DNA of 55,720 bases from a virus. Lineage: Duplodnaviria > Caudoviricetes. The position numbers were made by a program, and so were the translations under genes. This document shows positions 1-54,153 of this stretch, one piece after another. The notes under the pieces are model-generated. The model worked only from the letters and a program-made list of their open reading frames with translations. It had not been told where the DNA came from and did no database searches. The stretch lies in IMG/VR virus record IMGVR_UViG_3300037498_000121, positions 1 through 55,720 of that record; one strand, written 5' to 3'. Positions within the stretch are counted from its first letter, which is position 1, and every line of letters starts with the position of its first letter.

Positions 1-1083
1 ATTGGCCAGCGTCTTCAGATCCCGAAAAGCCGCCCGCTGCACCTCGGTCTCAGAATGCAGATGCTCCTCTCGGGCGCGCAATAGATCCCCGTAGTCAACC
101 ACCAGCGCATCGGGATCCCAGTTGTAGCGCTGTTTCAGCTCGCGGATCTCCTCTTGCAGATCGGCCACTGAGTAGGTCCACCGCTCGGTCAATCCGCGGA
201 TGACCAGCTTCGAGCGGTAGACCTGGTACTCGTACTGCAACCGCTGCCAAGACTCGGTGGAAAGCGACCCGTCTTTGATTCGCCAATATTCCTCCTGGGC
301 AAAAACCGAGTCATACCGGTTCTCCACCATTTTTCTGGAACCTTCGAGCACGAAGTGGAGCACCCGCATGTTAGCCCGGCGCACGCCCTGGGCGCCGAGA
401 TTCACCAGCATCGTCGATTTCCCGCGCTTGGGGTAAGCCACCCAGATGCCCAGCTCGCCCTTCTTCAACCCGCCAGAGAGCACGTGGTCCAGCTCAGGAA
501 TGCCGGTAGGCATCGCGTCAGCATGCGCATCGGTGCCCAGACGGTAAGCCATCCGCTGGGGCAAATCCTCGAAGAAAAAACACCGATCCACCGTCTCCCA
601 TTGGGTGTGGAAGATCCGATCCATCGCCTGGTACATGGAATCGTAGCTCTTGGCGACGTTACCGGTGTTAAAGAACGCCTTCGACTCATGGAAAGCAGCA
701 ACGAAGAGGTGCCGCTTGACGAAGTCGATGACCGTATCTCGCAACCACGCCTCCGCCGATAGATCCGCCTCCAGCACCCGTTCCAGTGTCAGTCGAAAGA
801 ACTCCCGGGCCCGAGCATCTAACGCGCGAGTCTGCTCGCAAACGAGCCGCAACGAAGGAACGCTCTCGTACTTCACGCGGTACTCCTGCATGCGCGCGAA
901 CGCCCAGCCGTAGACCTCGTTTTCAAAAAACTCGGGCTTGAGGTGGGGCATGACCGCCGAAGCGAAAGAACCATCCTGGGCGAGGAGCTTGAGCAGCGCT
1001 GCTTGGTAATCCACCCCGAAGGGAAAGCGATCTCCGGCTGTCGGAATAGCCGAAGCCGGCACGGGGGTCCGTTCAACGGGCAT
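1..1083 (-). CDS. DnaB-like (SF4, T4 gp41-type) replicative helicase, 3' end truncated by the window
   Basis: Not in the ORF track; my translation from ATG 1083 is open to base 1: MPVERTP...PTGIPELDHVLSGGLKKGELGIWVAYPKRGKST (Walker A), VLHFVLEGS (catalytic Glu), PDALVVDYGDLL (Walker B), QRAAFRDLKTLAN. Confidence 0.93.
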   Translation of the reverse strand, partial: MPVERTPVPASAIPTAGDRFPFGVDYQAALLKLLAQDGSFASAVMPHLKPEFFENEVYGWAFARMQEYRVKYESVPSLRLVCEQTRALDARAREFFRLTLERVLEADLSAEAWLRDTVIDFVKRHLFVAAFHESKAFFNTGNVAKSYDSMYQAMDRIFHTQWETVDRCFFFEDLPQRMAYRLGTDAHADAMPTGIPELDHVLSGGLKKGELGIWVAYPKRGKSTMLVNLGAQGVRRANMRVLHFVLEGSRKMVENRYDSVFAQEEYWRIKDGSLSTESWQRLQYEYQVYRSKLVIRGLTERWTYSVADLQEEIRELKQRYNWDPDALVVDYGDLLRAREEHLHSETEVQRAAFRDLKTLAN

Positions 1084-4014: not shown

Positions 4015-4159
4015 CGGCTTGGGCGACACGGCTTTTCCTTTTCTTGGGCTGGGCGAGCTTGGTTGAGGCTTTGGTGACACGCTTCTTCACTTTCTTTCCT
4101 TCCCCTCGCCCGGTTTTGGTGGTGGTGCGTTTCGATTCGGTCTTTTTCGGCCTGGGCAT
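3971..4159 (-). CDS. Small Lys/Arg-rich protein with AT-hook-like ends (putative DNA-binding)
   Basis: 62 aa with AGGAGAG upstream; begins MPRPKK and ends RPGRPRKQ; overlaps the next gene by 44 nt. Confidence 0.55.
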   Translation of the reverse strand: MPRPKKTESKRTTTKTGRGEGKKVKKRVTKASTKLAQPKKRKSRVAQADDDSHVRPGRPRKQ

Positions 4160-4381
4160 TTCTCTCTCCTGGTGTTGGTACTTCCCGCGCGTAGGCGCAT
4201 TTTCATCTTTTATGGGAAAGTTCCAGAGAAGGCAAGTAGAAAAAGTTCCAGAAAAAGTAATTGTCCAGCCCTACCTTCCCGCTCCTTCTCAGCCCCTAGA
4301 TTATTTTTGGGCAGAGAATCCCATTTGCCCGCCCTCGCCCTCTGATCCGCTCTTCGCTCTTTACATTGCTTGGCGCCGCTC

Positions 4382-4414
4382 AAGGACTACTGAAGGACGA
4401 CTGGAAGACTACCT
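4382..4414. repeat. 11-bp degenerate tandem repeat x3
   Basis: AAGGACTACTG / AAGGACGACTG / GAAGACTACCT. Confidence 0.6.
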
Positions 4415-4427
4415 CTCAAGAGGCTAC

Positions 4428-4487
4428 CCAGTTTCGATCGTCTTCCATCCAATTTCGATCGTCTTCCATCCAGTTTCGATCGTCTTC
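4428..4487. repeat. 21-bp tandem repeat x about 3 (iteron-like)
   Basis: CCAGTTTCGATCGTCTTCCAT / CCAATTTCGATCGTCTTCCAT / CCAGTTTCGATCGTCTTC, with no spacers. Confidence 0.9.
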
Positions 4488-4527
4488 TTGAATCTTCTTT
4501 TTCTTAACCCGGCTTCGCGATCATACC

Positions 4528-4717
4528 CTAGTCGGCTCCTTCTGCGAAGGAGCCAACTAGCGGCGATTTTTAGAACCTTTTCTTTGATGGGAAGGAATAG
4601 GGTGTCTGCTTCCCTCAGTTCCCAAATCAAATAGGATTTTAAGCATCTCCTCCCCCGGTCAGCCCCCGAAGGGGGCGAACTGGGGAGCGAGATTGAGAGC
4701 AGTCGCGAAGCGACTGC
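4528..4717. other. Cluster of three GNA-triloop hairpins
   Basis: 4528-4560 minus strand CTAGTTGGCTCCTTC-GCA-GAAGGAGCCGACTAG; 4662-4676 GCCCCC-GAA-GGGGGC; 4699-4717 GCAGTCGC-GAA-GCGACTGC. Confidence 0.8.
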
Positions 4718-4970
4718 GAACCCTAAGAGCTTCTGGATTTTTAATGTTTGAAAATCATAAAAGATCGATTAAGATCTATTCCCACTTGAAGGGCGTTATT
4801 TCTGATCTGTTAATCATATAAGCCAGAATTAGTCAACAAAAAAGAATCGCGGCAAATCTTCTAAACTTTCAAATAGCATTTCAATGGGATGAGCACCCAT
4901 ATAAAAAAACTCTATTGTTTTTGACCCCCTCAGAGTTTCATCGACTCAGCGCGTCAATTTTTAGGCGTTT

Positions 4971-5011
4971 GCACAGTTTCTGTGCAATCGGTACACGCAC
5001 AGTTTCTGTGC
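4971..5011. repeat. Duplicated 15-bp dyad (operator-like)
   Basis: Identical GCACAG-TTT-CTGTGC at 4971-4985 and 4997-5011. Confidence 0.85.
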
Positions 5012-5013
5012 TT

Positions 5014-5060
5014 TCCAGACAAATTCCAGACATTGTCCAGACAAATTCCAGAACTCCAGA
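5014..5060. repeat. Phased TCCAGA array with 11-bp period
   Basis: TCCAGA starts at 5014, 5025, 5036, 5047 and 5055. Confidence 0.85.
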
Positions 5061-5065
5061 AAAGT

Positions 5066-5566
5066 TCACCGAGTGATAATAGCCATTGTTAGCAGGCTGA
5101 AAGTGATCCCGGAGGTCAAAAGGATGAAGGTTGGCTCGCGGTACCATTTGTGTGCTTTTTCGATTTCTTGGAGGTAGCGCTCCTCCTGTTGCTTCCAGCT
5201 CTTCGCCTCCAGCTGGCGGAGCTTGCGCTCCAGATCCAGGTCCACCCGAGAAAGCGATCGTTCCCGCTCCTTTTCCAGCTCCAGTTGGAGTTCGAACCGC
5301 TCCACCTTCTGCCCCAGCTCGATGGCCAGCTTGGTGGTCAGGAGCTGGCCGGAGAAGGGGGCCGGCTGCCCTTCCTGGAGGGCTGTAGCGCACTTCTTTG
5401 GGTCTTTCGGGTCACAGGGGAAGAGCTGGTCTTCTCCTTGAACCAGCGGGCTCCAGAGGAGCCACCAGAGGCTAACCAGTAGGACGGGTGCCCATCTTGA
5501 CCAGATATCGAGCGAGGGCCACCGGATCTCGGGCCAATAGGTTGGCCTGGGCCTTCTGTTGAGCAT
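5066..5566 (-). CDS. Membrane-anchored coiled-coil protein (signal peptide plus C-terminal TM); spanin-like accessory lysis candidate
   Basis: ATG follows GGAGG by 6 nt. Hydrophobic APVLLVSLWWLLW, GQPAPFSGQLL, a coiled coil and a C-terminal TM. Overlaps the upstream gene by 95 nt. No lipobox. Confidence 0.6.
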   Translation of the reverse strand: MLNRRPRPTYWPEIRWPSLDIWSRWAPVLLVSLWWLLWSPLVQGEDQLFPCDPKDPKKCATALQEGQPAPFSGQLLTTKLAIELGQKVERFELQLELEKERERSLSRVDLDLERKLRQLEAKSWKQQEERYLQEIEKAHKWYREPTFILLTSGITFSLLTMAIITR

Positions 5567-5819
5567 TGAGGGCCTCCATTTGCATAGAATACTTGGCTAC
5601 CACCTCCGCCTTGGCCACCGCGGCCCCTTCCTTGGCCAGGGTCTGGGCGGCCTCCAACCCCGCCTTTTCCTCCCGGGCCTTGCCCCGCAGCCAGTCGATG
5701 ATCTTGGTCCCTCGGCCGGGAAAGAGCGGGAACAGGAAAAGCAGCACCGCGATCACCACCGCGGCCACTGCAATCCAGAATCCTGCCCGGCCGATGGTCC
5801 CCCAGATCTTCACGGGCAT
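5472..5819 (-). CDS. N-terminal TM plus coiled-coil protein, i-spanin (Rz)-like
   Basis: FWIAVAAVVIAVLLFLFPLF followed by an Ala/Lys/Glu-rich helix; coupled to the holin-like gene. Confidence 0.6.
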   Translation of the reverse strand: MPVKIWGTIGRAGFWIAVAAVVIAVLLFLFPLFPGRGTKIIDWLRGKAREEKAGLEAAQTLAKEGAAVAKAEVVAKYSMQMEALNAQQKAQANLLARDPVALARYLVKMGTRPTG

Positions 5820-6172
5820 GTCGGCGGCTCCTCATCTGGCCTGGGTGGTAGCAGGGACGGACGTTTGCGCTTCACCAGCGCTTCCGCGCCCGCGCGAACG
5901 ATCTTGGTGCCCAGCACGTAGGCGGCGAGGGTGTAGAACACTTCCAGAAGTCCGGGTGGCGCCTCGGTCACGATTCCAGAAAATAAGGCCCGGTGCCAGA
6001 GGATGAAGAACTGCACCAGCACGGCGAAGAAGGCCAGCCGGCCCAGCGAGACCACTGCCTTCTTCTCTTCGTCGCGCTCCATGATGAGACGCAACCCGAA
6101 GCGGTAGAACCAACGGCCCAGCGTACGCAGGGCACTCCAGAACCAGCTCAACAGCAAACGGATCACGGGCAT
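5810..6172 (-). CDS. Putative holin
   Basis: 120 aa with 2-3 hydrophobic segments (SLGRLAFFAVLV; VFYTLAAYVLGTK), charged C-terminus, AGGAG RBS. Confidence 0.6.
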   Translation of the reverse strand: MPVIRLLLSWFWSALRTLGRWFYRFGLRLIMERDEEKKAVVSLGRLAFFAVLVQFFILWHRALFSGIVTEAPPGLLEVFYTLAAYVLGTKIVRAGAEALVKRKRPSLLPPRPDEEPPTCP

Positions 6173-20113: not shown

Positions 20114-20129
20114 CCGCGCACCTCCTCAG

Positions 20130-20254: not shown

Positions 20255-20276
20255 GAACATAGTTGCCATTTCAGTC

Positions 20277-21338: not shown

Positions 21339-21345
21339 CGTTACC

Positions 21346-22845: not shown

Positions 22846-22846
22846 G

Positions 22847-25222: not shown

Positions 25223-25224
25223 CG

Positions 25225-32624: not shown

Positions 32625-33047
32625 TCAAAACAGGCTAGGTCGATCCGATGAACTCGCTGTAGCCGGCGGGGTATTCCCTGGAGCAGCCAGCTTCGCGGAG
32701 AGCTTCTCGCTGATCATTCCCGGAGTATCCTCGCCACTGATAGTGCCTGGCTGAATGATAGTGATTTTTGGGGCATCGGGGCAACCCCCATCGGCGCCGC
32801 CCCCGGTACGGGTGCCTGACTCGTACTCGATTTCCAGAGAATCCCCGGGGAGCGGGGCCTCCTTGAGCACCACCTTGGTCGGGCTTTGAATCGTGAAACC
32901 GTCATCCCAATCGCGGACCTTCAGCCGCCCATTCCAGAAAACCTGCACCGTTTCTGGAACGAAAGGAAAGCTGGTGTAGAACTCGATGTTGGTCCCGTCG
33001 ATGGCCCCAACGAGCGTATCCCCAGCGGTCTCTTTGATCGTGATCAT
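32625..33047 (-). CDS. Small virion structural protein (DGxN...NG...APLxGD domain)
   Basis: IDGTNIEF, VQVFWNG, EAPLPGDSLEIEY; paralogue of 33044-33289. Confidence 0.7.
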   Translation of the reverse strand: MITIKETAGDTLVGAIDGTNIEFYTSFPFVPETVQVFWNGRLKVRDWDDGFTIQSPTKVVLKEAPLPGDSLEIEYESGTRTGGGADGGCPDAPKITIIQPGTISGEDTPGMISEKLSAKLAAPGNTPPATASSSDRPSLF

Positions 33048-33289
33048 GAGCCCCTATCGTACTTCGCGCTCAAGCTGTCCCCGGTGAGCGGGGCCTCGCG
33101 GAGGCGCACTTGCCGGGCACCGAGTTCCTCGTAGCCGGTATCCCAACCTGGAACCAGTCGTATCCCGTTTTTCCAGACAGTTACCGTTCCAGAAACATAG
33201 TTAAAGGTTGTCCAGAAAACTCGATTAACCCCGTCTGGGTCGGGAATGAGTGGGGCGTAGATGGTCCGTCGGGTAACTACAAGGGCCAT
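33044..33289 (-). CDS. Small virion structural protein, paralogue of 32625-33047
   Basis: PDGVNRVF, VTVWKNG, EAPLTGDSLSAKY. Confidence 0.7.
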   Translation of the reverse strand: MALVVTRRTIYAPLIPDPDGVNRVFWTTFNYVSGTVTVWKNGIRLVPGWDTGYEELGARQVRLREAPLTGDSLSAKYDRGS

Positions 33290-43100: not shown

Positions 43101-46100
43101 AAAGTACCGGGCAACCATTGACCTGTTTTGTCCACGTAACCCCATCTGTAGAAGTTGCATAACAAATTAGGTATTTAGCACTACCACCATACGGAGTTCC
43201 GTACGCATGATACCAAGCCTTATAGATGCTGCCATCTTTGATGATACTTGGTCTGCCTAAAAGAGTGGTGTCGTACCCACTCGCCCCAAGATCGAGTACC
43301 TGGTTGCTACTGTTCTGCCTGGCCCACGCCGTCAAGGCATTATCGTCGAACAGCGCCATGCCCACGGCCTTGGTCGCATCGGACTTGATTCCCGCATACC
43401 AGAGCTTGTAGTCGGCCCCTTCCTGAATCAGGCAACTCTCTCCGATCTGAGTATCGTCGAACTTGCCCGCAGTCCCGAGACCGAGCACGCGGGTGTTGGT
43501 CAGAACCTTGGTGCAGGTGCTCAGGTCCGTTGTCGCGAATCCAAGACGACCGGTTCCACCTGCGTCGACCCCTGTATAGACCATCTTGTAGGCCACCGTC
43601 GCCGGTGGGAAATCGGCGTAGATGAGCCCGATTCGATAGACCGCGTCGCCTTCATCGCCGGTGTACCAGATTCGCATCTGGGCTCCGAAGACGACAGGAG
43701 CGACGTTCGCGATGCCAACATCGTCGAACTGACCAGAGCTTCCGAGAATAATCACTGCGTCGCCGCTGTTCTGCCGGGTCCAGGTGATCCCGTCGGTCGA
43801 GATGGCGTACCCAACCCGAGAGACGTTGGAGGCATCCACCCCTGTGTAGAACATGTGATACGTGCTGCCGATCAGAGAAACCCTGGGATTGGTCACGTAC
43901 TTGGCGTCGAATTTTCCACCTGCTCCAACTGCCAAGACGGCGTCACCACTGTTTTGGCGAGTCCAGGTAATACCGTCAGATGACGTCGCGTATCCGATGG
44001 TCTTGTGATCCGAACCGTCGTCTCCGAAGTACCACATCCGATAGGTCGCACCGTCTTTGATGACACAGGGGCTAAGCACGCCGGCGGCATCGAACTTGTC
44101 ACCAGCGCCCAAGCCCAGTACAGCGTTTCCAGAATTCTGGCGAGTCCAGGTCAAACAATCTGTCGAAGTCGCGTATCCGATCCTCCAAAGACCGTCTGCA
44201 ACCGATTTACCGCCGTACCACATCTTGTAAGTGGCGCCGTCTTTGATGATCGACGGCAACGAAACTTGAGCATCGTCAAACTTGGTGCTCTCACCAACAG
44301 TGAGAACTGGGTCGCCAGAGTTTTGCCTGGTCCAGGTGAGACCGTCCGTGCTGGTAGCGTATCCAATCTTATAGTCGTTCTGGGCAATGCTATGGCAACC
44401 CGAATACCACATACGATAAGTCATGTCATAGAGCACTGCCCCAACGATGGTGCTGAACGCGTCGAACTTGGCCACTGTACCTAAGCTCAAGACAGGATTT
44501 CCAGAATTCTGGCGGACCCCACCGACGACCATGGCGTGCCCGATGGCATTGACCAACGAGACGTTTGTTCCACAGTACCAGATGCGATACGTGTTACCGA
44601 CCTGAACCGTACAGACCTGGTGAGCATTTGTTACGTCGAACTTGCCAGCCCCGCCGATGGTCAGAATCGGATTCCCGGCGTCTTTCGTCCAATTGATACC
44701 GTCTGACGAAGTGGCAAAACCAACTTTGGCATTTGTTCCGTCACTGCCCGTGTACCACATTCCGTACTGCGCTGCCCCAGCGAATACAACGTGAGAAGCG
44801 TAGACATTCGTCGCCTCCCATCCGGTACCAACCGAGAGAACAGCATCTCCATTGCTCTGTTTGGTCCAGGTAGTCCCATTGGTCGAGGTTGCGTAGCCAA
44901 TGCGGTAGGCAGCCCCACTGATCCCCGTGTACCACATCCTCCATGAATTTGTAGATGTGTCGCGGATTACTCGTGGATACAGAACTCCAGTTTCATCAAA
45001 CTTGCCACCGACCCCTTTATCAAGAACTGCATTTCCAGAATTCTGTTTGGTCCAGATGAGGCCATCTGTCGAAGTCGCGTAGCCAATTCGCCAAGTACTG
45101 TCCGAGGCCTTCTTGCCGCTGTACCACATGTAATATGTGCTGCTGACTTTGGAAACGCTGGGGCTCGCCAGGTCAGCGTCGTCAAACTTGCCCGACGCAC
45201 CAGTCTCCAGCACTGGCAAACCTCCGTATCCACGAATCCAGACGATCCCATCGGTCGAAGTCGCATACCCGATATTGCTCTTGGTGCTGTTCGTTCCTTG
45301 GTACCACATCTTGTACGTCGAGCCGTCATAGATGATACTGGGATTCGACACGCCAACTTTGTCGAAACTCTCAGAAGTAAATACGAGAGTGTTCATCAGA
45401 GTCCGGCGTCCAGTCTGTGCACCATCTGACAGTTCCACAGACATGTACAGATACGTTCCGTCGAAACACGGGTAGGTCTGGTGACTTCTGGAGTACCCCA
45501 GATTGTCAAACGGGTCATTTCCCCAACCAACGATAGGTTGGTTCTGATTGCCAACGCCCCAATTCAGCCCATCAAGCGAGATGGCGTAGAAAATACTGTA
45601 ATACCCGTCGATATGAGGCTTCGAATAGAACATGATGAAGTACGTACCATTGTAGTAAACCGACGGGAATCCAGCAGCAGCTCCAAGAATTGTGAACGCG
45701 TTGCCACCATTCCCCCGAGCCCAGGTGATGCCATCTGTCGACGTAGCGTAGCCGATACCGCCAGCACCACCGGTGTACCACATGCGATAATCGCCTGCAG
45801 CTATCCGAAGAACACTTGGGTAGCAGGCTCCGTAGTAGTCGAACGAACCAGAACCGACGGTATCAAATACCGGATTCCCGGCTGTGTAGTCGGTCCAATC
45901 AAGACCACTTCTTCCAGCCCAGCTGCTGCATGTCGCCCGACCTATCCTGTAGTACCCATCGGTTCCCTGTCCGGTGTACCACATCTCGTATTGCGTCGCC
46001 GAGATTCTAACGACGCTGGGAGCGAACTGCTGGGTACACCACGCTCCAAGAGCAAAAATAGGCTGACCGTTGTTCTCGAACTCGATCTCTCCGGCAAGGT

Positions 46101-49100
46101 CTGTGATTCGCCCTACGAGCAATCTTCTTATTGAAGACGAATTGATACCGGCCAGGTAAACCAGACGCATGATGTGCGCCGAATTGGTTGCTTGGTACGG
46201 GACAACACACGCGCTGTCGTGACCGTAGGCCATGGTAACTGAAGTATCGATACCTCGATCCATAACCATGCCGTGTTTGGTCCAAGTCGTACAATTTGTT
46301 GATGTGGCGTACCCAATTCGTGCCTTTTCTGAATCCCATCCAATGTACAGCATATGAAAATACCCGGATGCAAACCAGACTGCAGGGTTGTAAACCCCAG
46401 CATCATCGAACGACCCACCAGCCCCAAGATTCAATACGGCTGCGTTGTAACCACCCACCGTGTACTTACCAAAACTAACGCCATCAGATGAAGTTGCTAA
46501 TCCAATTCTCCAATTCCCATTGTACCCACCGTAAAACATATAGTAAGTACCATTGTACTTTACAACAGAAGCAGATGATATCTCACTGTAATCAAAATTG
46601 TTTGCATTCTGATAACCATTTAAGATTGAGAACGTACTACCACGCGTCCAACTAGTTCCATTCGACGAGTAGAAATAAACAATACTTACTTCAGACCCAT
46701 TATTGCCAGTACCTCGGCACCACATCTTGAAATACCCACCATCTCTAATGACCGATGGCGCAAATTGCCCTATGCCAATGTACGGATCATCGCGGTATGC
46801 TACAGTTGTCACGTAGCTTCCGTTATTAACTCGTGTCCAATTTATCAAATCTGGAGAAGTCGCAGCAATAAAAGCCTTCATCCAATTGGCAGTACTTGGA
46901 TTCCACCACTGCGCTGTAGTAAACATCCACCACAGATTAGTATTTTCATTAAATACTATCGTTGGATGGTTAATTTGATTGTCCCCAGGAATTGAAACAC
47001 CACTGGGAGTTACTCCATAATACCCAACCGGCCCAACCGTAATAAGATGTGAATATGGTCTGGTCAACGTTGAATTCTCAGTCCACGGTTGCCCCAATGG
47101 CCAAGACAGAGCCAAACCACCATATCCAGTTGTCCCGTCGTTTGCACGGTAAGAAACGTAAACTTCACCAGATGGACCAACAGCTGCAGAAATCCAATCA
47201 ATCTGTGTACGATCCCAGGTCTGCGCATGAAACTGGGTAATCAGCGCAGACGTCTTGGACACTGGAGCGATAGCATCGTAGGTGGCACCTTCGTGGTACC
47301 CGATTCGACTACATCCCCCTTTATTAGAACCACCACGCCACGTCTTCCAAATTGTATTACCTGGCGATGAAGTCGTATCAACCAATACAGACGACCCATT
47401 ACCAGTTGGCATCTCCCATACGTTACTGCTACTTATTTCTGCTTCGACTGTCCACGAATTGGGATTTGCCGTTGGGGTCATTCTGTATAAACGTGCCCGG
47501 TATGGAGTACTGTACGTAGCAGCACGAAGCCACATATAGTATGTAGAATTATAGTAAGCAACTGACACCAGAGAAAAATTGGAAAAACCGTACCCGGTTT
47601 GTGTTATCTTCGAATAGACAGGGTTCCCAGAATTCTGTCTCGTCCAGGTAACACCATTGGATGACGTAGCGTGTCCTATCCCATACCAATAAGATCCCTC
47701 ATGGCCGATATAAAACATGTGGAACAACGATCCGTCATGCGTCACTGCAGGATAAACAACATGTATGTCATCAAACTTGCCAGCTGTCCCCACTGACAAA
47801 ACAGCGTTTCCAGAATTCTGCTTGGTCCAAGTTATCCCATCTGTGGACTTGGCGTACCCGATCCGATACAACCCAGTGGCCGAGCACCCAGAGTAAAACA
47901 TGTGCAGTTCACTATTGTAATAGACCACAGACGCTGTATAAGCCTGGGTATCGTCGAACTTGCCTCCAGCGCCAAGAGGGAGAACAGGTGCTCCACCATT
48001 CGCCCGAGTCCAGCGCAATCCATCGGTAGATGTCGCACAGAAGATCCGTGAAACAGAACCATTGCTACCTGTGTACCACATGTAGTAAAGCGAACTGAAT
48101 CCATCTGCGGGTTGGACCACAGATGGCGAACTGACACTCATGTTATCCAGAAATCCATAGACCCCAGAATCAAAAACGATATTGGTGGTCAATTGTCTCG
48201 GCACGCTGCTAAGATACTTCTGGCCACCACTGCCGCTGGCACTGAAAACAGCGTTGCCACTATTCTCTCGCGAAACAATCTCAGGGGTAGTTAGTAGGGC
48301 CGGACCTATCAACGCATACCCAATCTTGTACTGGCCGCCAACGTCCTGGCCGCCGTACCAATATTTGAATGTGTTCGAGTCAAGTAAGAGGCAACCCTGA
48401 TGCACAAACAGGTTGTCAAAGTTCCCGGTCCCAATCCCGAGAATGGCATTGCCACTGTTTTGTTTGACCCAAACGATTCCATCAAGAGAGTTGGCGTAAC
48501 CGTTTCGCCAGTTGGTCCCGTCGAACCCGGCATAGACCATGCGATAGGTCAAGCCGTCTTTGACGACGCCGCCGGGAAGAACGTGGGTAGCGTCGAACTT
48601 GCCGCCGCTCACCAGCAGGACTGCATTGCTGCTGTTTTGCCTGGTCCAAGAGATGCCATCGCTGGACGTGGCATAGCCGACTTGCCAGGTACCAGACGCA
48701 TTCTTGCCGCCATACCACATCCTGAAAGTGCCACTGTCCAGAATCACCTGTGGGTACGAGACCCCAAGGGCATCGAAGTAACCACCAGAGCCAGCACCGA
48801 GAACAGCGTTTCCACTGTTCTGACGAGTCCAGACAATCCCATCCGAGGACGTCGCGTAACCAATAGTCCAAACACCAGACCCGGCATCGCCCGCGTACCA
48901 CATGCGATACGTAGCTCCGTCCTTCAGGACCGATCCGTACGCTGCTTGGGCATCGTCGAACTTGCCGCCGGCGCCATAGGCCAGAACTGGATTTCCAGAA
49001 TTTTGCTTGGTCCAGGTAATGCCATCGGAGGACGTTGCGTAACCGATCCGGCCGCTCGACTCGGCATCGGTTCCGGTGTACCACATCTTGTAGGTCGCAC

Positions 49101-52100
49101 CGTCTTTGAGGACCGACGGGTTGCCCGATCCACTGACATCGAAGCCTGTGTACCCCCCGGCCATTAGAGAGTTGCCACTGTTCTGCCGAACGTACAGCGT
49201 GTACAACCCGAAGAGCGCAGCGTCTGGGATCAAAGCCGTAGGGTTCTTCACATGCAGCGCGTCGAAAGTCCCTCCAGCTCCCTTGGCCAGAATGGGGTTG
49301 GTGCTTGGGTTACTCTTGGTCCAGGAGATCCCATCGGACGAATAGGCATAGCCTACTTGGTAGTTCGTGTTGTTGTACCCGGTGTAAAACATGCGCAGTG
49401 TCGCGCCGTCGACAACTACACATGGCATGTTTACGCCATATTGATCGAAGTACCCCGAAGTGCCGACGGCCAGAACAGCGTCGCCAGAGTTCTGCCGAGT
49501 CCAGACGAGGCCGTCTGGAGATGTCGCGTAGCCAATCGTCCAGACCCCTCCCGCGGACACGCCCCCGTACCACATGCGATAAGCGGATCCGTCTTTGACT
49601 ACCCAGCACCCAGCCACCTGAGCCGCATCAAACTTGCCTGTCTCTCCAAGGCCCAAGACCGCCTCGGACCCGTTCTGAATCGCCCAGGTGATCCCGTTGG
49701 CCGAAGTCGCATGGTAAATTCTGGAAACCGAGCTGACCGTACCAGTGAACCACATCTTGTACGTGCCTGAATCGTTGATGACACACGGAGCAGTGATTGG
49801 CATGGCCGGAAAGCCAGTGGGGTTGTGTGCGAATACAGCGTTGCCGCTGTTTGCTCGCTCCAGGGCGGTCAGGTCGTTGAGCAGGCTGTAGCCAATTCTC
49901 CACTTCAATCCGTCGTAGCCGGAGTACCACATCTTGTGTACTCCGCCGTCTACCAGCCAAACCGGAGCACCGATATGGACATCGTCAAACTTGTCGGCAA
50001 TACCCAGATACATGAAGGCATTGTCAAGACCGTTGTTTTGCTTGGTCCAAGTCGTGCCATTGGTCGATGTCGCGTAGCCAATCTTGGCGTTATTCGCAGA
50101 ATCGTCCCCTCGATAGAGCATTCGATAAAGCGTACCGTCGAGTATCACACTGGGATCCCGCACGGCCATATAGTCGAACTTGGTACTGGCACCGACGTCG
50201 AGAACGGCATTGGCCGAATTCTGTTTGGTCCAGGCGATTCCATTCGCGCTAGTAGCGTAACCGATTCGCCTCTTGGAGTCTGAAACTTTGACCCCCGTAA
50301 AGAACATTCGATACGTTGCCCCGTCTTTGAACACGCAGCATTGCCCAAGGCTCAGCTCGTCAAACTTGCCGCTGGTCCCGAGATCGAGCACGGCATCGCC
50401 AGAGTTCTGCCGGGTCCAGACGAGACCATCGGGAGAGGTCGCGTATCCAATCTTGTAGACTCCGCTGACCTGGCCGCCGACGTACCACATCTTGTATGTG
50501 CCACCGTCGTTGATGACCCAGCAGGACGTGATCGAGTAGTCGTCGAACTTGCCCCCGGCGCCCACGCCCAGGACCGGTTGTCTGTTGTTCTGCTTGGTCC
50601 AGACGATGCCGTCTGTCGACGTGGCGTAACCAATCTTGTACCGAGGGCTGGAGTAACCGGCGTACCACATCTTGTAGGTGCCTGCGTCGTTGATGATGCT
50701 AGACGAATACACCTGCTCGGCATCGAACGGAGCCGTACCGAGATCGAGCACGGCATTGCCACTGTTCTTTCGCTCGAACGCGGTCAGGTCTCCCATTACG
50801 CCGTAACCGACCCGCCAATTGGTTGCGTCGAATCCGGCGTACCACACCCAATACGTCGTTCCGTCAAACACAATAGAAGGTGAACCCACGTCAGATACGT
50901 CAAACTTGCCTACAGCCCCTACGGTAGAAATAGCATTGGCAGTGTTCTCGCGATTCCAGACAATCCCATCTGCACTGGTCGCATAGCCAAACCGATCAAT
51001 GCTCCCATTGTACCCGCAGTAAAGCATCTTGTAGACGCTACCGACTTTCACTACGCTGGGATCGCTCACCGAGTTGGCGTCGAACTTTCCACCGACTCCG
51101 AGATCGAGAACGGCATTTTCAGAGTATTGCTTAACCCAGGTAATGCCATCGGAACTGGTGGCGTACCCAATGCGCAGCTTGGAGTCTGAGTTCTTCAGAC
51201 CCGTAAACCACATCTTGTAGATAGCCCCGTCTTTGATGACGCAAAGCGAGCCTAGACTCTTATCGTCGAACTTGCCGCTTGTGCCGAGATCCAGAACCGG
51301 ATCGCCCAGGTTCTGACGTGACCAGACAATGCCGTCTATCGACGTGGCGTAACCGATCTTGTAATTCCCGGCTGCCTGGCAACCGGCGTACCACATTTTG
51401 TACGTCACATCCTTGATGACCGAACAGTAACCAATGGACGCGTCGTCGAACTTGCCAGCGACTCCGACGCCAAATACCTTGCGTTCGTTGTTCTGCTTGG
51501 CCCAAGTAATCCCGTCTTCACTGGTGGCGTACCCGACCATAGACAGGATGCCATCAGACCCGATATACCACATCTTGAAGACGTCACTATCGAGAATGAC
51601 CGAAGGGGCCGCGGCCCCGACCGAATCGAATCCAGTACCCCCGACATCGATCACTGGATTGCCACTGTTCTGTTTGAGCCAAGTAAGGCGATCACTCGAC
51701 ATGGCCAAGCCCACGCGGTTCTTATCACCGTCGTTCCCACTATAAAAGAGCTTGAGGGTTCCTCCGTCGTTGATGACGCTAGGCTCGTATACGAACTCGT
51801 TGTCGAACTTGCCAGGTGCCCCTGCAGACAGAACGGGCAAGCCCTTGTTCTGTCGGACCATGTCTATATTGCCGATGTTGAAATCGGCGCCACCATCGTC
51901 ATGCTGGATGTCCACGTGCTTGGTACTGGCATCGAACTCGTAGCTCTTGCCCTCAGCTTCAGTGTTCACCAACCGGGGCCCACCGATCATGTCCATCGGG
52001 TATCCGGTAACGTCGTCCGAAGTCTGTGTCCCGATGGGGTCCTTCTCGAAGTTGCACAGGAATGTGGGAATGTGGTTGAGGGGTATATCTTTGGAAATCT

Positions 52101-54153
52101 TGTTCGCCACCAGGTTTGTTTTTTCAGAAGTCGAGGCTTCCAGAATTAGCGAAGCAAAGTCTCCGCGCTTTTCCGTCACCCACGTGGTGGGCATGGCGAC
52201 TGCGTCTGTCCCTTCAACGTAACCGCTGACCGCGTCTCCCTCTTCGAGCTGAACCTCGTAAATGGCCACCGCGTCCTGGTCCAGGCCGAGATACGATAAG
52301 TCACTGGAAGCTGTCGCGCTCAAAAAAACCTTGTAGGTCTCCGTTGGGTCAAGCAACTCCACTGCCTGGGATACCCAAAAGAACCCATTCCCATCCGGCT
52401 CTATTTTTGAGCCGCACCCACCGACCCTAGTTCCCACAGACCCATGCCCCACCAGATGAAACAGCGAGTACTGCTTGACAGCGTCTGTGCCAACTGGCAA
52501 CGAGAACCAGTCTCGCCCCAGGGGTTTGACTTTGACTGATAGCGTATACTTGCCTGGAGCCAGAACGGGCAGGACCTGGTCGATGTTGTGCTCTGCGGTG
52601 CTGTCGTCTTCATGAAGCACAAACGCGCCCGTACCGCCGTCAGGATCTAAGCCCCCGTAAGCAGCAACCGTACCGTTATTCTTCGCCCAGTCGCTATGCG
52701 TGAACAGATTGGTGCGCTTCAAGACGTTCTTGATGCGTCCTTCGCTGCCAATTCGCATCTCGTCAACGGGGGTACTGATTATCGTCCCATCAGACTTGTA
52801 AACATTCGCAGGGGCTGCTCGACTGAAATCGAGATGGGAGATCACCCGATTCTGGGAACCGTGTTTGATCCCGGTAAGCAGATCCTCTTCTCGCGCCTGC
52901 CGAACCGAATTCAGCGCCGCGGTATCGATTCGCAGATAAACCATGTAGCCCTTGAACAGATTGCTGGGCCCGCTGCGCGCTCCAACGTAAAGTCCTGCGC
53001 CTGGCGATACCCCGAACCCCGCCACGCTCTTCATCTCGGCCATCTTGTTGTTTACGGTTAAAGTCGCGATGTCGTCTTTGCGGATCAGAACAATCCGATT
53101 CACAGCCCCAACGTGAATCGCCCCAGTCAGGGTCACGCTCGTCGTGTTGTAGTACGTCGCATTGATGGTCCCCTCGGCGATATCGTACCAAAACTCAAAA
53201 CCGCGATCCGGCCCCGCGGCGTAACAAGACAGCAAGCGAGATCCGCTATCGGCATCGACATGCACAATCCCGCTCACCGTATGATCGCGCGTGAACAGCG
53301 TTGGGTCAGGCAGAGCGTTCACCCCGAAGAACTGGTCAATGCCGTTGAACCCTCGTCCCTGCAGATACGCACTTCGCGTGCCCGGGATAGCCGTGATCAC
53401 TGTCGGGGGATTTCCGTAGGCAGTCAGATTGATTTTCGGTTTGACGACGCTGAGCGTCTTCACGTACCTGGGCATGTGCCCCATCGATTTCGCGACCCCG
53501 GTGATCTCCACGAAATGCACCCGGGTCACCGCGATAGCGTTCACCCCGCCGCCAGTGTAGATGTGCAGGTTGTTCTGCTTGGCTCCACAAATGCGAATAT
53601 CGTAATCAGCCGAGTGCGTCGCCTCAAACTCCAACACCACTTTCTGCCAACCATGAGGCGCCCGGTAACAGCTTCTCAGCTTGATAACGCTTCCAGAAAG
53701 ATTCGCCCCGAATACCCCAGTCACGAGATTGAGGTAGAACCCGTGGTCTACTTCACCAGAGTACAGGTCGGTCACCTTGAGCACTGCCCAGGGCCTGACC
53801 ATCGAATGGATCAACGCGGTCAAGCGATAAGTCTTCCCAGCCGTCAAGCTGGTCTTGAGCTGAGTCACCGCATGCAGCTGTTGCTCTTCGCTGGTGTTCT
53901 CTTTCAGGACGTTGACCGTCCCGGTATTGCCGTCAGGCAAGAGAATAGCGTCGGAGACGATCTCCCCGTTGACCTTGACCCATGGAGTCTGGGTCATATC
54001 CTCGCTGGCCTTGACCTGGTTCTCCCCAGATTGATCAAGCCAGTTGCCGCTAGAGTCAACCGAATCCCCAGCGTACTCACAAAGCGTATTCTCGTTACGG
54101 AGAGTCAGGACTGGGGAGCCCGTGAAATCGATAGACCCTGAGCGCTTGACCAT
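37132..54153 (-). CDS. Giant 5673-aa virion appendage protein: LamG/CBM-like domains plus about 15 five-bladed Asp-box beta-propellers (GH43/32/130-like fold)
   Basis: Uninterrupted 17-kb ORF with GGAG RBS; about 75 repeats of about 61 aa: NSGNAVLxxGxxGKFDxxxVxxPxVIKDGxTYKMWYxG...IGYATSxDGxxWTxQ. Confidence 0.9.
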   Translation of the reverse strand: MVKRSGSIDFTGSPVLTLRNENTLCEYAGDSVDSSGNWLDQSGENQVKASEDMTQTPWVKVNGEIVSDAILLPDGNTGTVNVLKENTSEEQQLHAVTQLKTSLTAGKTYRLTALIHSMVRPWAVLKVTDLYSGEVDHGFYLNLVTGVFGANLSGSVIKLRSCYRAPHGWQKVVLEFEATHSADYDIRICGAKQNNLHIYTGGGVNAIAVTRVHFVEITGVAKSMGHMPRYVKTLSVVKPKINLTAYGNPPTVITAIPGTRSAYLQGRGFNGIDQFFGVNALPDPTLFTRDHTVSGIVHVDADSGSRLLSCYAAGPDRGFEFWYDIAEGTINATYYNTTSVTLTGAIHVGAVNRIVLIRKDDIATLTVNNKMAEMKSVAGFGVSPGAGLYVGARSGPSNLFKGYMVYLRIDTAALNSVRQAREEDLLTGIKHGSQNRVISHLDFSRAAPANVYKSDGTIISTPVDEMRIGSEGRIKNVLKRTNLFTHSDWAKNNGTVAAYGGLDPDGGTGAFVLHEDDSTAEHNIDQVLPVLAPGKYTLSVKVKPLGRDWFSLPVGTDAVKQYSLFHLVGHGSVGTRVGGCGSKIEPDGNGFFWVSQAVELLDPTETYKVFLSATASSDLSYLGLDQDAVAIYEVQLEEGDAVSGYVEGTDAVAMPTTWVTEKRGDFASLILEASTSEKTNLVANKISKDIPLNHIPTFLCNFEKDPIGTQTSDDVTGYPMDMIGGPRLVNTEAEGKSYEFDASTKHVDIQHDDGGADFNIGNIDMVRQNKGLPVLSAGAPGKFDNEFVYEPSVINDGGTLKLFYSGNDGDKNRVGLAMSSDRLTWLKQNSGNPVIDVGGTGFDSVGAAAPSVILDSDVFKMWYIGSDGILSMVGYATSEDGITWAKQNNERKVFGVGVAGKFDDASIGYCSVIKDVTYKMWYAGCQAAGNYKIGYATSIDGIVWSRQNLGDPVLDLGTSGKFDDKSLGSLCVIKDGAIYKMWFTGLKNSDSKLRIGYATSSDGITWVKQYSENAVLDLGVGGKFDANSVSDPSVVKVGSVYKMLYCGYNGSIDRFGYATSADGIVWNRENTANAISTVGAVGKFDVSDVGSPSIVFDGTTYWVWYAGFDATNWRVGYGVMGDLTAFERKNSGNAVLDLGTAPFDAEQVYSSSIINDAGTYKMWYAGYSSPRYKIGYATSTDGIVWTKQNNRQPVLGVGAGGKFDDYSITSCWVINDGGTYKMWYVGGQVSGVYKIGYATSPDGLVWTRQNSGDAVLDLGTSGKFDELSLGQCCVFKDGATYRMFFTGVKVSDSKRRIGYATSANGIAWTKQNSANAVLDVGASTKFDYMAVRDPSVILDGTLYRMLYRGDDSANNAKIGYATSTNGTTWTKQNNGLDNAFMYLGIADKFDDVHIGAPVWLVDGGVHKMWYSGYDGLKWRIGYSLLNDLTALERANSGNAVFAHNPTGFPAMPITAPCVINDSGTYKMWFTGTVSSVSRIYHATSANGITWAIQNGSEAVLGLGETGKFDAAQVAGCWVVKDGSAYRMWYGGVSAGGVWTIGYATSPDGLVWTRQNSGDAVLAVGTSGYFDQYGVNMPCVVVDGATLRMFYTGYNNTNYQVGYAYSSDGISWTKSNPSTNPILAKGAGGTFDALHVKNPTALIPDAALFGLYTLYVRQNSGNSLMAGGYTGFDVSGSGNPSVLKDGATYKMWYTGTDAESSGRIGYATSSDGITWTKQNSGNPVLAYGAGGKFDDAQAAYGSVLKDGATYRMWYAGDAGSGVWTIGYATSSDGIVWTRQNSGNAVLGAGSGGYFDALGVSYPQVILDSGTFRMWYGGKNASGTWQVGYATSSDGISWTRQNSSNAVLLVSGGKFDATHVLPGGVVKDGLTYRMVYAGFDGTNWRNGYANSLDGIVWVKQNSGNAILGIGTGNFDNLFVHQGCLLLDSNTFKYWYGGQDVGGQYKIGYALIGPALLTTPEIVSRENSGNAVFSASGSGGQKYLSSVPRQLTTNIVFDSGVYGFLDNMSVSSPSVVQPADGFSSLYYMWYTGSNGSVSRIFCATSTDGLRWTRANGGAPVLPLGAGGKFDDTQAYTASVVYYNSELHMFYSGCSATGLYRIGYAKSTDGITWTKQNSGNAVLSVGTAGKFDDIHVVYPAVTHDGSLFHMFYIGHEGSYWYGIGHATSSNGVTWTRQNSGNPVYSKITQTGYGFSNFSLVSVAYYNSTYYMWLRAATYSTPYRARLYRMTPTANPNSWTVEAEISSSNVWEMPTGNGSSVLVDTTSSPGNTIWKTWRGGSNKGGCSRIGYHEGATYDAIAPVSKTSALITQFHAQTWDRTQIDWISAAVGPSGEVYVSYRANDGTTGYGGLALSWPLGQPWTENSTLTRPYSHLITVGPVGYYGVTPSGVSIPGDNQINHPTIVFNENTNLWWMFTTAQWWNPSTANWMKAFIAATSPDLINWTRVNNGSYVTTVAYRDDPYIGIGQFAPSVIRDGGYFKMWCRGTGNNGSEVSIVYFYSSNGTSWTRGSTFSILNGYQNANNFDYSEISSASVVKYNGTYYMFYGGYNGNWRIGLATSSDGVSFGKYTVGGYNAAVLNLGAGGSFDDAGVYNPAVWFASGYFHMLYIGWDSEKARIGYATSTNCTTWTKHGMVMDRGIDTSVTMAYGHDSACVVPYQATNSAHIMRLVYLAGINSSSIRRLLVGRITDLAGEIEFENNGQPIFALGAWCTQQFAPSVVRISATQYEMWYTGQGTDGYYRIGRATCSSWAGRSGLDWTDYTAGNPVFDTVGSGSFDYYGACYPSVLRIAAGDYRMWYTGGAGGIGYATSTDGITWARGNGGNAFTILGAAAGFPSVYYNGTYFIMFYSKPHIDGYYSIFYAISLDGLNWGVGNQNQPIVGWGNDPFDNLGYSRSHQTYPCFDGTYLYMSVELSDGAQTGRRTLMNTLVFTSESFDKVGVSNPSIIYDGSTYKMWYQGTNSTKSNIGYATSTDGIVWIRGYGGLPVLETGASGKFDDADLASPSVSKVSSTYYMWYSGKKASDSTWRIGYATSTDGLIWTKQNSGNAVLDKGVGGKFDETGVLYPRVIRDTSTNSWRMWYTGISGAAYRIGYATSTNGTTWTKQSNGDAVLSVGTGWEATNVYASHVVFAGAAQYGMWYTGSDGTNAKVGFATSSDGINWTKDAGNPILTIGGAGKFDVTNAHQVCTVQVGNTYRIWYCGTNVSLVNAIGHAMVVGGVRQNSGNPVLSLGTVAKFDAFSTIVGAVLYDMTYRMWYSGCHSIAQNDYKIGYATSTDGLTWTRQNSGDPVLTVGESTKFDDAQVSLPSIIKDGATYKMWYGGKSVADGLWRIGYATSTDCLTWTRQNSGNAVLGLGAGDKFDAAGVLSPCVIKDGATYRMWYFGDDGSDHKTIGYATSSDGITWTRQNSGDAVLAVGAGGKFDAKYVTNPRVSLIGSTYHMFYTGVDASNVSRVGYAISTDGITWTRQNSGDAVIILGSSGQFDDVGIANVAPVVFGAQMRIWYTGDEGDAVYRIGLIYADFPPATVAYKMVYTGVDAGGTGRLGFATTDLSTCTKVLTNTRVLGLGTAGKFDDTQIGESCLIQEGADYKLWYAGIKSDATKAVGMALFDDNALTAWARQNSSNQVLDLGASGYDTTLLGRPSIIKDGSIYKAWYHAYGTPYGGSAKYLICYATSTDGVTWTKQVNGCPVLYNGVAGKFDADHVTKPSVIKNGATYHMWYTGDGSGNSAIGHATSPDGIVWTRQNSGNAVLQAGVAGKFDDLFVGDASVILDGATYKMWYVGYKTSDNIYRIGYATSTDGDTWTRQNSGNAVVNVGAAGKFDVGGLVCPSVIKDTILGTVYRMIYTGYGEYRIGYATSADGITWVKHGPVVNGSCFDNGSVRWAGQLMLDGTVYKCWNVNSTIIEYFILGKNFVSGLQPLGFCKENSGNAVMVGTAGKFDATYVLYPSVLYEAGTYKMWYAGYEGTGYRIGYATSTDGITWTKQNSGNAVLGFGAAGKFDDAGVYTPCVINVAGTYYMFYTGWDGANYAGIGYATSTNGINWTRQNSGNAIIARVAATWESLHVTGPSVVYHPNGYYYMYYSGHNGTIWTIGLAYTNNLASAWTKYGQVLPAGAGWDSLHVTAPRAILEGTECVLFYGGMSASTWSIGSAHASDMVSFTRSTYNPIATVTAGKFDSAGLLGLSVVHNGSRYVGFYGGYNGTIWAMGMLSSVYGTLQNSPVIDKGPAGKFDGFSIASPTVLVDGTTYRMWYAGCTTAARNTFKIGYAISTDGIAWTKQSSGAPVLTVGAGGEFDQIQVSDPCVVNDAGTYRMWYAGYNGTVWALGYATSTNGTTWTRQNSSNAVLTIGASGKFDDQHVTNPWVIKDGSTWKMWYTGTKVSDGIKRIGYATSSDGITWVKQNGGNAVLDVGAGGMFDAAGVLSCSVFKIDSRYYMVYEGLLATTTKIGYAYSADGITWVRQNSGNYTMTVGASTKFDEKNVSRPAVVQEGFYFRMWYVGQTLDGTLMTRIGLAAIDNMVRQNSANAVLSIVAAAAFDATHVAAPSVIKDGNIYKMWYTGYNDVDYWAIGYATSVDGITWVNQRGNGTRGCVLDVRAGQFDSTFVWQPCVLKDGDVFRMWYTAIDASGHYKIGYAISSDGVNWTYPNGTTPVLTVTPAKFDSARVYMAWVIKDGATFRMWYSGHNGSILQLGYATSSDGISWTKQNSGNPVLITGALGKFDYSHVQSPFVIKEDSIYKMIYSGVNGSTTSWGYATSSDGITWTRQHNEDPVLRFYGTTNFDRSSNQALIWLCGLCVINDNGVYKIWYGGSDGTNHRIGYAQAIGPARQNSGNAVIESQARFDTSNVLCPSIVRDGGYLKMWYAGDSGGGRQIGYASSEDGLAWATYGAAVLSPTLGKFDAGEAAYPYVMKDGLTYRMWYAGYAAGTDWTIGYATSDDGIVWTKQNSGNAVLAQGAEGKFDSVSVYCPQVIKDGATYKMWYSGSNGTNNQVGYATSSDGITWVKQNSGDPVVTVGAGGKFDSSQVFVSGILYDGASYKMLYIGFNGSVFNMGYATSPNGIAWTKQNSGDAVFSFGLSGKFDRYLTSGTGAALLEDDGAFKLWYGGNDGVNGRIGYAVGAGLDRHNSGDPIIDIGTSGGCDSDGIYAPSVIKDGGVYKSWYTAFDGEFYRIAYATSADSINWIKQNAGLPVLVLGDSGKFDDVGHYGSAVIKDDVTYKMWFSGNDGTVHRIGYATSSDGIAWTKQNSGNAVLDLGETGAWDAKEIRVNSVVKHGSLYVMLYTGYPAAGLPAQVGMATSSDGVVWARFGSGAVPFIRANGPGMFDSNAVQSAALVSRGGSPEMFDVFLAGQDEGGKYRIGHAISSLVETDAINHNFSVVALFTAHDAPIGDEALIGKTNDGDNQCGWFAGLTASKKAGMSIATVSPEMGSSCWSPTNSVTPNKMQLLTTTYEFLTNGTSKMRTYLDLNAPGVNNAAVGPLAQNAEDVVIANDADGVRPFNGKLHKVIFLKGVVLTPTEHQNMCTAAKDDGLLPIRIGGSANAKSIQIRVKAKVPFQSSETAEYAVLFEIGGNSGTANATRNRLTVAILADGTISLSFYDNASALHKAVSTPNPVLFNQSHEYRLSLDLENLENSSAMVNLTDVGFFWTGKTGSAECDLQDTFLWIGRDQADNPYTCRVQWVKFEVK

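Follow-up and report, generated by a model that had tools for sequence, protein, structure and literature searches.

A short asymmetric DNA word that fills the genomes of sediment myoviruses, a candidate site for a phage-specific DNA-binding factor

The window and the word it carries

We analyzed a stretch of viral DNA, IMG/VR record IMGVR_UViG_3300037498_000121 (hereafter the window), in which one short word, the octamer TTCCAGAA, recurs throughout the coding sequence. The window is the whole virus record, a linear sequence of 55,720 bases with an estimated completeness of 52%. Its GC content is 57.3%, lower than the approximately 58–60% given in a preliminary description of this DNA. Genes for a tail sheath, a tube initiator and a baseplate J protein assign the window to a myovirus, of whose genome it represents about half. 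All convincingly coding open reading frames (ORFs) lie on the minus strand, and searches for Rfam families and tRNAs found none in the window. A replication module occupies positions 1-4080; homology to a relative, G2, identifies the genes at 1-3797 as those of DnaB-like and UvsW-like helicases.

The 11 public sequencing runs containing window DNA are labelled as sediment metagenomes and are stored as assembled contigs. Near-identical DNA was absent from the phage collection, in which the sheath protein matched only relatives at ~30% identity. Searching viral loci with the sheath protein yielded 23 related loci, and the phage family is one of ~100-kb genomes of sediment origin. We compared the window with four relatives: the near-complete G1 (96.8 kb) and G2 (109.3 kb), whose alignments with the window and with each other have ~74% nucleotide identity, G3 (105.8 kb, GC 0.52) and G4 (110.4 kb, GC 0.64). 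Essentially all genes lie on one strand in each of these 97-110-kb genomes, and the GC skew holds one sign across the entire records.

The octamer occurs in 64 exact copies in the window (48 on the plus strand and 16 on the minus strand). The preliminary description had counted at least 64 copies and judged this far above chance, and our count bears it out: dinucleotide-preserving shuffles (n = 100) gave a mean of 1.63 copies (standard deviation 1.22, maximum 5), and none of the 100 reached 64. An order-3 Markov model predicted 4.9 copies, corresponding to a 13-fold excess. The 9-mer TTCCAGAAA, which extends the octamer, was found 41 times against 1.16 expected (35-fold), and the shorter TCCAGA 149 times against 46-64 expected. 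The maximal-order Markov expectation was high (51.7) because the 7-mer sub-words are themselves enriched.

We then compared the observed number with three coding-aware shuffles, all of which leave the 10 intergenic copies unshuffled. Synonymous-codon shuffling within genes (n = 300) retained 14.36 ± 1.64 copies (maximum 20), codon permutation within genes (n = 300) 12.09 ± 1.48 (maximum 17), and third-position swaps that keep both amino acids and dinucleotides (n = 60) 28.52 ± 2.99 (maximum 34). The enrichment thus persists when codons or dinucleotides are preserved, a check proposed in the preliminary description.

Of the 64 copies, 54 are genic and 10 intergenic. The genic copies occupy all six phases, as had been reported, and the peptides quoted then (FWN, FLE, ISG, FQK, FSR and FPE) were correct. 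The Ser-Gly frame (xT TCT GGA Ax) accounts for 30 copies, the other two antisense phases for 9 (phase 1) and 2 (phase 0), and the same-sense phases 2, 1 and 0 for 6, 4 and 3. Among the 190 Ser-Gly dipeptides of the window, 35 are spelled TCT-GGA, compared with 5.9 expected from codon usage. This spelling was used at 30 of the 47 Ser-Gly positions where the flanking codons supply the T and the A, and at only 5 of the 143 others; the same pattern holds in two relatives. Such flank-dependent use is a direct sign that codons are chosen to suit the DNA word. Together with the shuffles, it sustains the earlier view of a DNA-level signal: the signal sits in DNA, not in peptides or codon usage. Seven copies (38445, 42213, 44127, 44499, 45033, 47808 and 48993) share a longer common context, a protein repeat (…NSGN…) within a giant ORF, and are therefore paralogous and not independent. 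The contexts of the remaining 57 copies are unrelated.

The dispersed set of 64 exact TTCCAGAA matches, 41 of them full TTCCAGAAA sites, extends over positions 333..53698 on both strands. Plus-strand copies start at 2164, 3005, 3554, 4246, 5046, 5942, 5974, 8021, 8854, 9477, 9615, 10092, 11284, 12208, 12579, 14909, 16268, 16620, 17637, 18676, 19217, 22282, 22716, 23602, 27031, 28869, 29320, 29837, 31538, 32932, 33187, 34251, 34380, 34710, 37470, 38445, 38520, 38925, 39099, 42213, 42996, 44127, 44499, 45033, 47808, 48993, 52138 and 53691. Minus-strand copies start at 333, 1404, 3161, 3227, 8581, 14136, 17823, 17865, 19124, 20554, 24321, 25910, 25976, 29012, 32952 and 49719.

To define the site, we pooled 499 sites into a sequence logo. 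TCCAGA (positions 2-7) is invariant, with a preferred T before it and an A followed by A or T after it, and there is no further information within ±12 bp. The true site is therefore the asymmetric t-TCCAGAA-a-w, best written TTCCAGAAA, with the core TCCAGAA; a bipartite or palindromic site is ruled out, as no information lies beyond ~10 bp. The dyad TTC-N2-GAA with a CA/TG center proposed in the preliminary description does not hold, since TTCTGGAA is merely the reverse complement of TTCCAGAA. Of the variants listed there, TTCCGGAA is present twice (2568 and 35512) instead of once, and the reported absence of TTCTAGAA was correct; TCTAGA is also absent from the window. The motif stands at 9.3 times expectation, whereas pooled one-mismatch variants of TCCAGAA ranged from 0.56 to 2.3 times, with the exception of TCTAGAA at 0.23 times (3 vs. 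12.9), which contains CTAG, itself at ~0.45 times.

These counts also bear on an earlier proposal that the word is a C-to-T relic of TCCGGA. In the window, TCCGGA is not depleted (13 copies vs. ~18 expected), and a relic could supply ~18 copies, not the 149 of TCCAGA. One-mismatch variants at background level, asymmetric flanks and active conservation of the sites likewise contradict a relic. A connection with TCCGGA nevertheless exists on the evolutionary level, as one sister lineage is packed with this palindrome and some of its sites are orthologous to those of the word (see below).

The orientation of the copies differs between the window and its relatives. G1 contains 141 copies (75 forward, 66 reverse) and G2 contains 135 (63 forward, 72 reverse). 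Relative to the genes, 63 copies are antisense, 61 same-sense and 17 intergenic in G1, and 61, 51 and 23 in G2. The window is biased (41 antisense vs. 13 same-sense), and we consider this ~3:1 ratio local because its structural genes and the giant ORF contribute it, unlike the balanced G1 and G2. There is no orientation switch along G2 or G4. The site reads without polarity in G1 and G2. Spacing of the copies is random (coefficient of variation 0.85-0.98), which rules out a regular arrangement. A promoter reading was ruled out, as intergenic copies lack orientation bias (G2: 17 forward, 14 reverse; G1: 11 forward, 16 reverse), and no excess of copies near gene starts was found in G1 or G2.

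Conservation and variation among relatives

We next examined whether individual sites are kept. Between the window and G1, 27 of 44 aligned sites were kept exactly, compared with 15.9% of other 8-mer windows. The corresponding figures were 27 of 41 against 11.3% for the window and G2, and 60 of 104 against 9.1% for G1 and G2. Where the amino acid was unchanged, motif codons were identical in 84/106 and 88/105 cases (79-84%) in two comparisons; elsewhere, the same two comparisons gave 3774/6525 (58%) and 2939/6070 (48%). Motif positions are thus far better kept than other synonymous sites, the outcome by which the preliminary description had suggested judging a DNA-level code. Both G1 and G2 retain 21 of the 64 window sites, and one or the other retains a further 12; 11 sites align but are retained in neither, and 20 lie in DNA that does not align. 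At non-conserved sites, the one-mismatch counterparts are scattered over many positions and include transversions. Judged from these alignments, the sites combine strong retention with some turnover, a pattern of purifying selection on the DNA word.

The word was the top or near-top 8-mer in all loci with at least 82% sheath identity and was still enriched in several at 59-65%. The 9-mer occurs 105 times in G1 and 112 times in G2, compared with 1.3-2.8 expected, and synonymous shuffles left 15.8 ± 2.2 and 28.9 ± 2.5 copies, respectively. Sister lineages carry related words. G3 is rich in TCCAGAAAT (56 vs. 3.5 expected; 12.9 ± 1.8 under synonymous shuffling) and TCCAGCAAT (31 vs. 1.9); its form of the word is written TCCAGMAAT. 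G4 has 319 sites of the palindrome TCCGGA against 50-57 expected and 87.5 ± 6.9 under synonymous shuffling; there, TCCGGAA is at 11.8 times expectation and TCCAGAA at 4.7 times. The excess of all these words persists under synonymous shuffling. When 125 G2 sites were mapped onto G4 by protein alignment, 7 coincided with TCCGGA and 9 with TCCAGA/TCTGGA (backgrounds 0.3% and 0.1%). The site family thus predates the split of the lineages, and individual sites changed form. Such a word was not seen in the relatives L043, L045/G7, L046/G8 and L023/24. Specificity has drifted within the family, with TCCAGAA(A), TCCAGMAAT and TCCGGA in different members. A scan of viral contigs for pairs of the 9-mer was dominated by AT-rich chance matches and is uninformative on other phage families; among the 80 loci listed, one (L128, a piece of G1 with 7 family proteins) clearly belonged to the phage family.

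The preliminary description had left open whether a phage or a host protein reads the word. Scanning bacterial genomes, we found five relatives, all within metagenome-assembled genomes (MAGs). In one MAG, G006, the contigs with phage-family proteins hold 120 copies of TCCAGAA in 61.8 kb. The largest contigs of the same MAG (457 kb, GC 0.57-0.595), which lack family proteins, hold 78 against 64-68 expected, 20 copies of TTCCAGAA against 17 expected, and 3 of the 9-mer against 3.3. The word is ~12 times thinner in the DNA of this candidate host than in phage DNA. In 301 genomes of the phylum of G006, the 9-mer did not exceed ~200 copies per genome or ~0.035 per kb, compared with ~1 per kb in the phage. 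Four unpublished genomes among the 301 (G066, G191, G166 and G106) have unremarkable counts, and the result holds for the other 297 alone. The lack of enrichment in bacterial contigs of the same GC content favors a phage-specific over a host-wide reading; no reader protein was found.

The same MAG shows a second contrast. Its motif-rich phage contigs (C29, C62, C101, C235, C480 and C310; L072-L074, L044, L199, L201 and L205) contain no TCCGGA in ~62 kb, where ~19-25 would be expected, and its bacterial contigs have a normal 177 in 457 kb. A host restriction system specific for TCCGGA, or a phage nuclease, could account for the zero. Other palindromes are missing as well. Several of 6 bp are absent from the window (observed/expected: AAGCTT 0/15.0, ATGCAT 0/8.4, CTCGAG 0/15.7, GAGCTC 0/16.0 and TCTAGA 0/7.0), and the avoided set differs in each of G1, G2, G3, G4 and the G006 phage contigs. 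GAGCTC is at 0 in the latter, but CTCGAG is 3.3-fold enriched. The pattern resembles strong avoidance of restriction sites that differs from lineage to lineage.

Control region, gene content and other features

A region of ~1 kb with low coding potential (4080..5066, minus strand), here called the early control region, lies next to the replication module. It bears an array of five TCCAGA cores in one orientation (5014..5060, plus strand, non-coding), spaced 11, 11, 11 and 8 bp, between the replication module and a lysis-like cassette. G1 has an equivalent of four copies spaced 11, 11 and 8 bp, and G2 has an 11-bp pair in the equivalent region. Phasing at 11 bp favors binding by a protein to one face of the helix over a purely mutational origin. 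Two further copies, reading TTTTTCTGGAACTTT … TCTCTGGAACTTT on the gene strand (4218..4256, plus strand; exact copy at 4246), lie ~20 and ~50 nt upstream of the first replication-module gene, and G2 has the equivalent pair at 81630/81654. Other elements of the region are the inverted repeat GCACAGAAACTGTGC, present twice, three tandem repeats of 21 bp (~4440-4500) and a stretch rich in AT. From this composition, it may be an origin and/or contain early promoters. A promoter and terminator scan of the region gave counts near chance, and the GC skew showed no origin-like turn. The proteins encoded at 5066-6172 have membrane segments predicted by eye and resemble a lysis cassette; the small proteins beside the array look like membrane (lysis) proteins and not like DNA binders.

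The complete relatives encode a DnaB-like helicase, a primase, an intein-bearing family A polymerase and a UvsW-like helicase. They also encode SSB-like, RecA-like (E 2.5e-30), SbcC-like, RuvC-like and clamp-like proteins, with the recombination part lying outside the window, as well as a MoxR/CobT pair, a deoxynucleoside kinase and an ADP-ribosylglycohydrolase. Tyrosine and serine integrases (PF00589 and PF00239) were not found in five phage records, four of them at least 91% complete, under searches whose controls matched. On the basis of this gene content and the lack of recombinases in the five records, the family looks virulent, with T4-style recombination-dependent replication. G1 is classed as a provirus by its source collection, yet it has no integrase match. 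Another relative is located inside a 3.5-Mb MAG chromosome.

Two very large proteins are encoded near the portal gene. One of ~1900 amino acids is a SNF2-family ATPase split by an intein with a homing endonuclease (G1 81598-87390, L042:1598-7390; G2 orthologue 19849-25371). The adjoining protein of 1446 amino acids is intein-bearing and combines a nucleotidyltransferase head domain with a pyrophosphatase-like domain that is common to the "DarB-like antirestriction" and minor head protein PHROGs. Both may be giant proteins packaged in the virion. A resemblance of these giant proteins to P1 DarB, for which there is a partial PHROG match, and one of TCCRGA to the MmeI-type site TCCRAC are leads only. 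In G2, inteins interrupt the UvsW-like helicase, the family A polymerase and the 1446-amino-acid protein (L036:2106-4646, L036:13893-16712 and L033:7213-11553). The helicase of the window (2316-3797; 493 amino acids vs. 846 in G2) has no intein.

Several other features of the window deserve mention. Three same-orientation cores spaced 16 and 23 bp lie in a short non-coding stretch (33172..33216, plus strand) and are kept in G1 at 54084-54128. An inverted pair, TTCCAGAAA-N10-TTTCTGGAA, lies at 32932..32959 (both strands) within the gene 32625-33047. The giant ORF (37132..54153, minus strand; 5673 amino acids) carries 15 of the 64 copies, 7 of them in its protein repeat. Several matches connect it with the GH130 beta-propeller family; it has internal repeats of ~180 nt and a GC content of ~0.50-0.55, below the rest of the window, and it has no counterpart at this place in G1 or G2. 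Other top k-mers of the window, e.g. TACCACAT (32 copies), are confined to these ~180-nt repeats and are unrelated to the motif. Overlapping long ORFs in different frames lie at 29923-31422 and 30759-31580 (29923-31580, minus strand), where G2 has two separate genes; the overlap could reflect a frameshift, programmed or erroneous, or two overlapping genes.

Possible readings and comparison with known systems

Our preferred reading, to which we give a little less than an even chance, is that TTCCAGAAA is the orientation-free site of a DNA-binding or DNA-processing factor specific to the phage, by which the genome is tagged throughout. Protein binding, the encoding of the protein by the phage and its role are what we infer from the patterns above. 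The putative factor would read double-stranded DNA irrespective of orientation and act on the phage genome, not that of the host. Selection would have placed its sites throughout coding sequence wherever the encoded protein tolerates them, to a density above one per kb. As the array suggests, the same factor might also act at the control region, in early transcription or at the start of replication. This phage group has long carried the site family, whose specificity has drifted. The most likely use would be a dense tag that separates phage from host DNA or organizes it, in the service of replication and recombination, protection or compaction.

A more specific version is possible, and we hold it with less confidence: virulent myoviruses of ~100 kb would run a genome-wide "self" tag of their own, in which a phage protein reads a TCCRGA-type word present at more than one copy per kb on both strands. 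Such a tag would distinguish phage from host DNA and serve protection, compaction, or recruitment to replication or packaging. Reader and word would have co-evolved through TCCGGA, TCCAGAA(A) and TCCAGMAAT, perhaps leaving TCCGGA where the host restricts this palindrome.

A number of results weigh against a phage-encoded binding factor. No motif-linked DNA-binding candidate emerged from Pfam and PHROGs searches of the proteins encoded by G1, G2 and the window. Eight genes are present in motif-rich but not in motif-poor genomes, among them a PHP protein, a 2443-amino-acid protein, a clamp-like protein and several small ORFs; none is a convincing DNA-binding candidate. For the first early protein (71 amino acids, 11 homologues), the fold model was unusable (predicted local distance difference test, pLDDT, 49). 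The homologous control regions of G3 and G4 carry no arrays of their own motif variant. On a quick sheath tree whose deep forks are unresolved, strong, weak and absent cases are scattered, and this scatter could equally reflect different hosts. The absence of the word from the host is provisional, as the G006 link is by binning alone and concerns the host of a relative, not of the window phage. Finally, a repair drive acting to restore the motif would conserve its positions as well.

Such a HIP1-like drive is an alternative we consider unlikely but take seriously: a methyltransferase would mark the site, short-patch mismatch repair would restore the methylated word, and the motif would have no function of its own. 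The statistics seen here resemble those of HIP1, namely a tens-fold excess, about one copy per kb, all frames occupied and conservation above synonymous expectation, according to the available text of PMC4390886 and PMC5861425. The word family, a 6-bp palindrome in G4 and a 7-bp asymmetric word elsewhere, also resembles methyltransferase and restriction sites. TCTAGAA, one transition away from the core, falls below CTAG generally, and the many 6-bp palindromes at zero indicate heavy restriction pressure on these phages. Against a drive encoded by the phage, the two methyltransferase families searched (PF00145 and PF01555) and Vsr (PF03852) had no match in the five phage records, although controls matched. 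A drive run by host enzymes predicts an enriched host, and neither the co-binned genome nor the 301 phylum genomes are enriched. Moreover, mismatches at non-conserved sites are not a single transition at a single position, and an 11-bp-phased array would be unexpected.

Somewhat less probable still, in our judgement, is that the phage accumulated a motif belonging to the host, be it a Chi-like signal, an uptake sequence or a site read by another host protein. In its density and its even distribution over the two strands the word is reminiscent of uptake sequences, and variation between lineages could mirror different hosts. Phages whose commonest octamer is the host Chi do exist, namely LLS, with 23 Chi sites (one per 1.86 kb), and P1, with 50 (one per 1.9 kb), as given in the available text of PMC12315714. 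There, 20 of the 23 LLS sites point in one orientation, compared with no polarity here. The Chi-rich lambdoid phages are presented in the same text as lacking recombination genes; the present family is unlike them in encoding RecA-, SbcC- and RuvC-like proteins and a UvsW-like helicase. The candidate host G006, linked by binning to a relative, and the 301 genomes sampled from its phylum, again, are unenriched.

We regard it as improbable that the sites are start points for a phage primase, helicase loader or initiator. There would be about one site per 1.4-1.7 kb per strand, roughly the size of an Okazaki fragment, and both strands are used equally. Immediately upstream of the helicase/primase/polymerase module are the iteron-like array, the inverted repeats and the AT-rich stretch. 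On the other side, known primases read 3-5 bases, not 7-9, and motif-poor relatives have the same primase and helicase. The lack of arrays in G3 and G4 and of an origin-like turn in the GC skew also argues against this possibility.

Silencing of the stoperator type, in which an immunity repressor bound at an early promoter and at intragenic sites shuts down a prophage, appears more doubtful again. It would fit a short asymmetric site with dozens to more than 100 copies in and between genes, some beside the first early gene, as well as the relative classed as a provirus and the one within a MAG chromosome. The orientation is ~1:1 in G1 and G2, however, the five records have no integrase match, no repressor was identified and the gene set looks virulent and T4-style. 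The copy number is also several times the few dozen usual for Cluster A phages. A motif that differs between lineages is a feature shared with Cluster A mycobacteriophages (PMC6550527, available text).

Lastly, an artefact of protein repeats, codon usage or assembly can practically be dismissed: the 7 copies in the giant-ORF repeat and the 30 of 54 genic copies in the Ser-Gly frame would suit it, but all shuffles reject it, the 57 other copies lie in unrelated contexts and the motif recurs in independently assembled relatives.

Genome-filling short words are rare, and each of those known (Chi, uptake sequences, HIP1 and stoperators) has opened up biology. Uptake sequences, the DNA uptake sequence of Neisseria and the uptake signal sequence of Pasteurellaceae, are asymmetric words of 9-12 bases that occur about once per kb, in both orientations and inside genes. 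We know of no uptake sequence that matches the word. Unlike it, they fill a bacterial genome and act at the cell surface; here, the candidate host and the 301 phylum genomes are unenriched. Literature searches for the word and for comparable phage motifs brought up stoperators, Chi-rich phages and HIP1 but no description of this motif; the word itself is contained in 5,652 papers, of which the 30 listed concern primers and unrelated sequences.

HIP1 (GCGATCGC) and alternative cyanobacterial palindromes come close in their statistics: about one copy per kb, a tens- to hundreds-fold excess, all frames used, orthologous positions conserved above synonymous expectation and alternative words in related lineages (PMC4390886 and PMC5861425, available text). 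They differ in filling cellular genomes that have cognate methyltransferases. Here, the word belongs to a phage, the co-binned bacterium is unenriched, the two methyltransferase families searched had no match, and the main form is non-palindromic, with a palindrome in G4 only. Cluster A stoperators share an asymmetric single-unit site, a genome-wide distribution that includes coding sequence, an early control region and a lineage-specific consensus, and are placed mainly in one orientation relative to transcription (PMC6550527, available text). Theirs are thus oriented and serve lysogeny; our sites show no orientation bias, no integrase match accompanies them, and they are several times more numerous. 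In Chi-rich phages, too, the commonest phage octamer is a DNA signal gathered by selection, but that signal is the host's and strongly oriented, and the phages have lost recombination genes of their own (PMC12315714, available text). In the present family, the candidate host is unenriched, there is no polarity, a RecA-like set is present and the density is two to three times higher.

The word described here belongs to a phage lineage and not to a cell, has no polarity, is maintained by selection that can be measured at synonymous sites and differs from one sister lineage to another. It illustrates that DNA-level signals can strongly constrain synonymous sites in viral genes, and it offers a cheap marker for retrieving an uncultured phage family from metagenomes. 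If a phage protein does read it, viruses would have a previously undescribed means of marking or organizing their own DNA, and there would be a natural system for studying the co-evolution of DNA-binding specificity with hundreds of sites. Compared with the known systems, this genome-filling oligomer is new in its combination of features: it is carried by an apparently virulent phage, free of orientation, denser than in the phage examples compared and replaced by variants in sister lineages.

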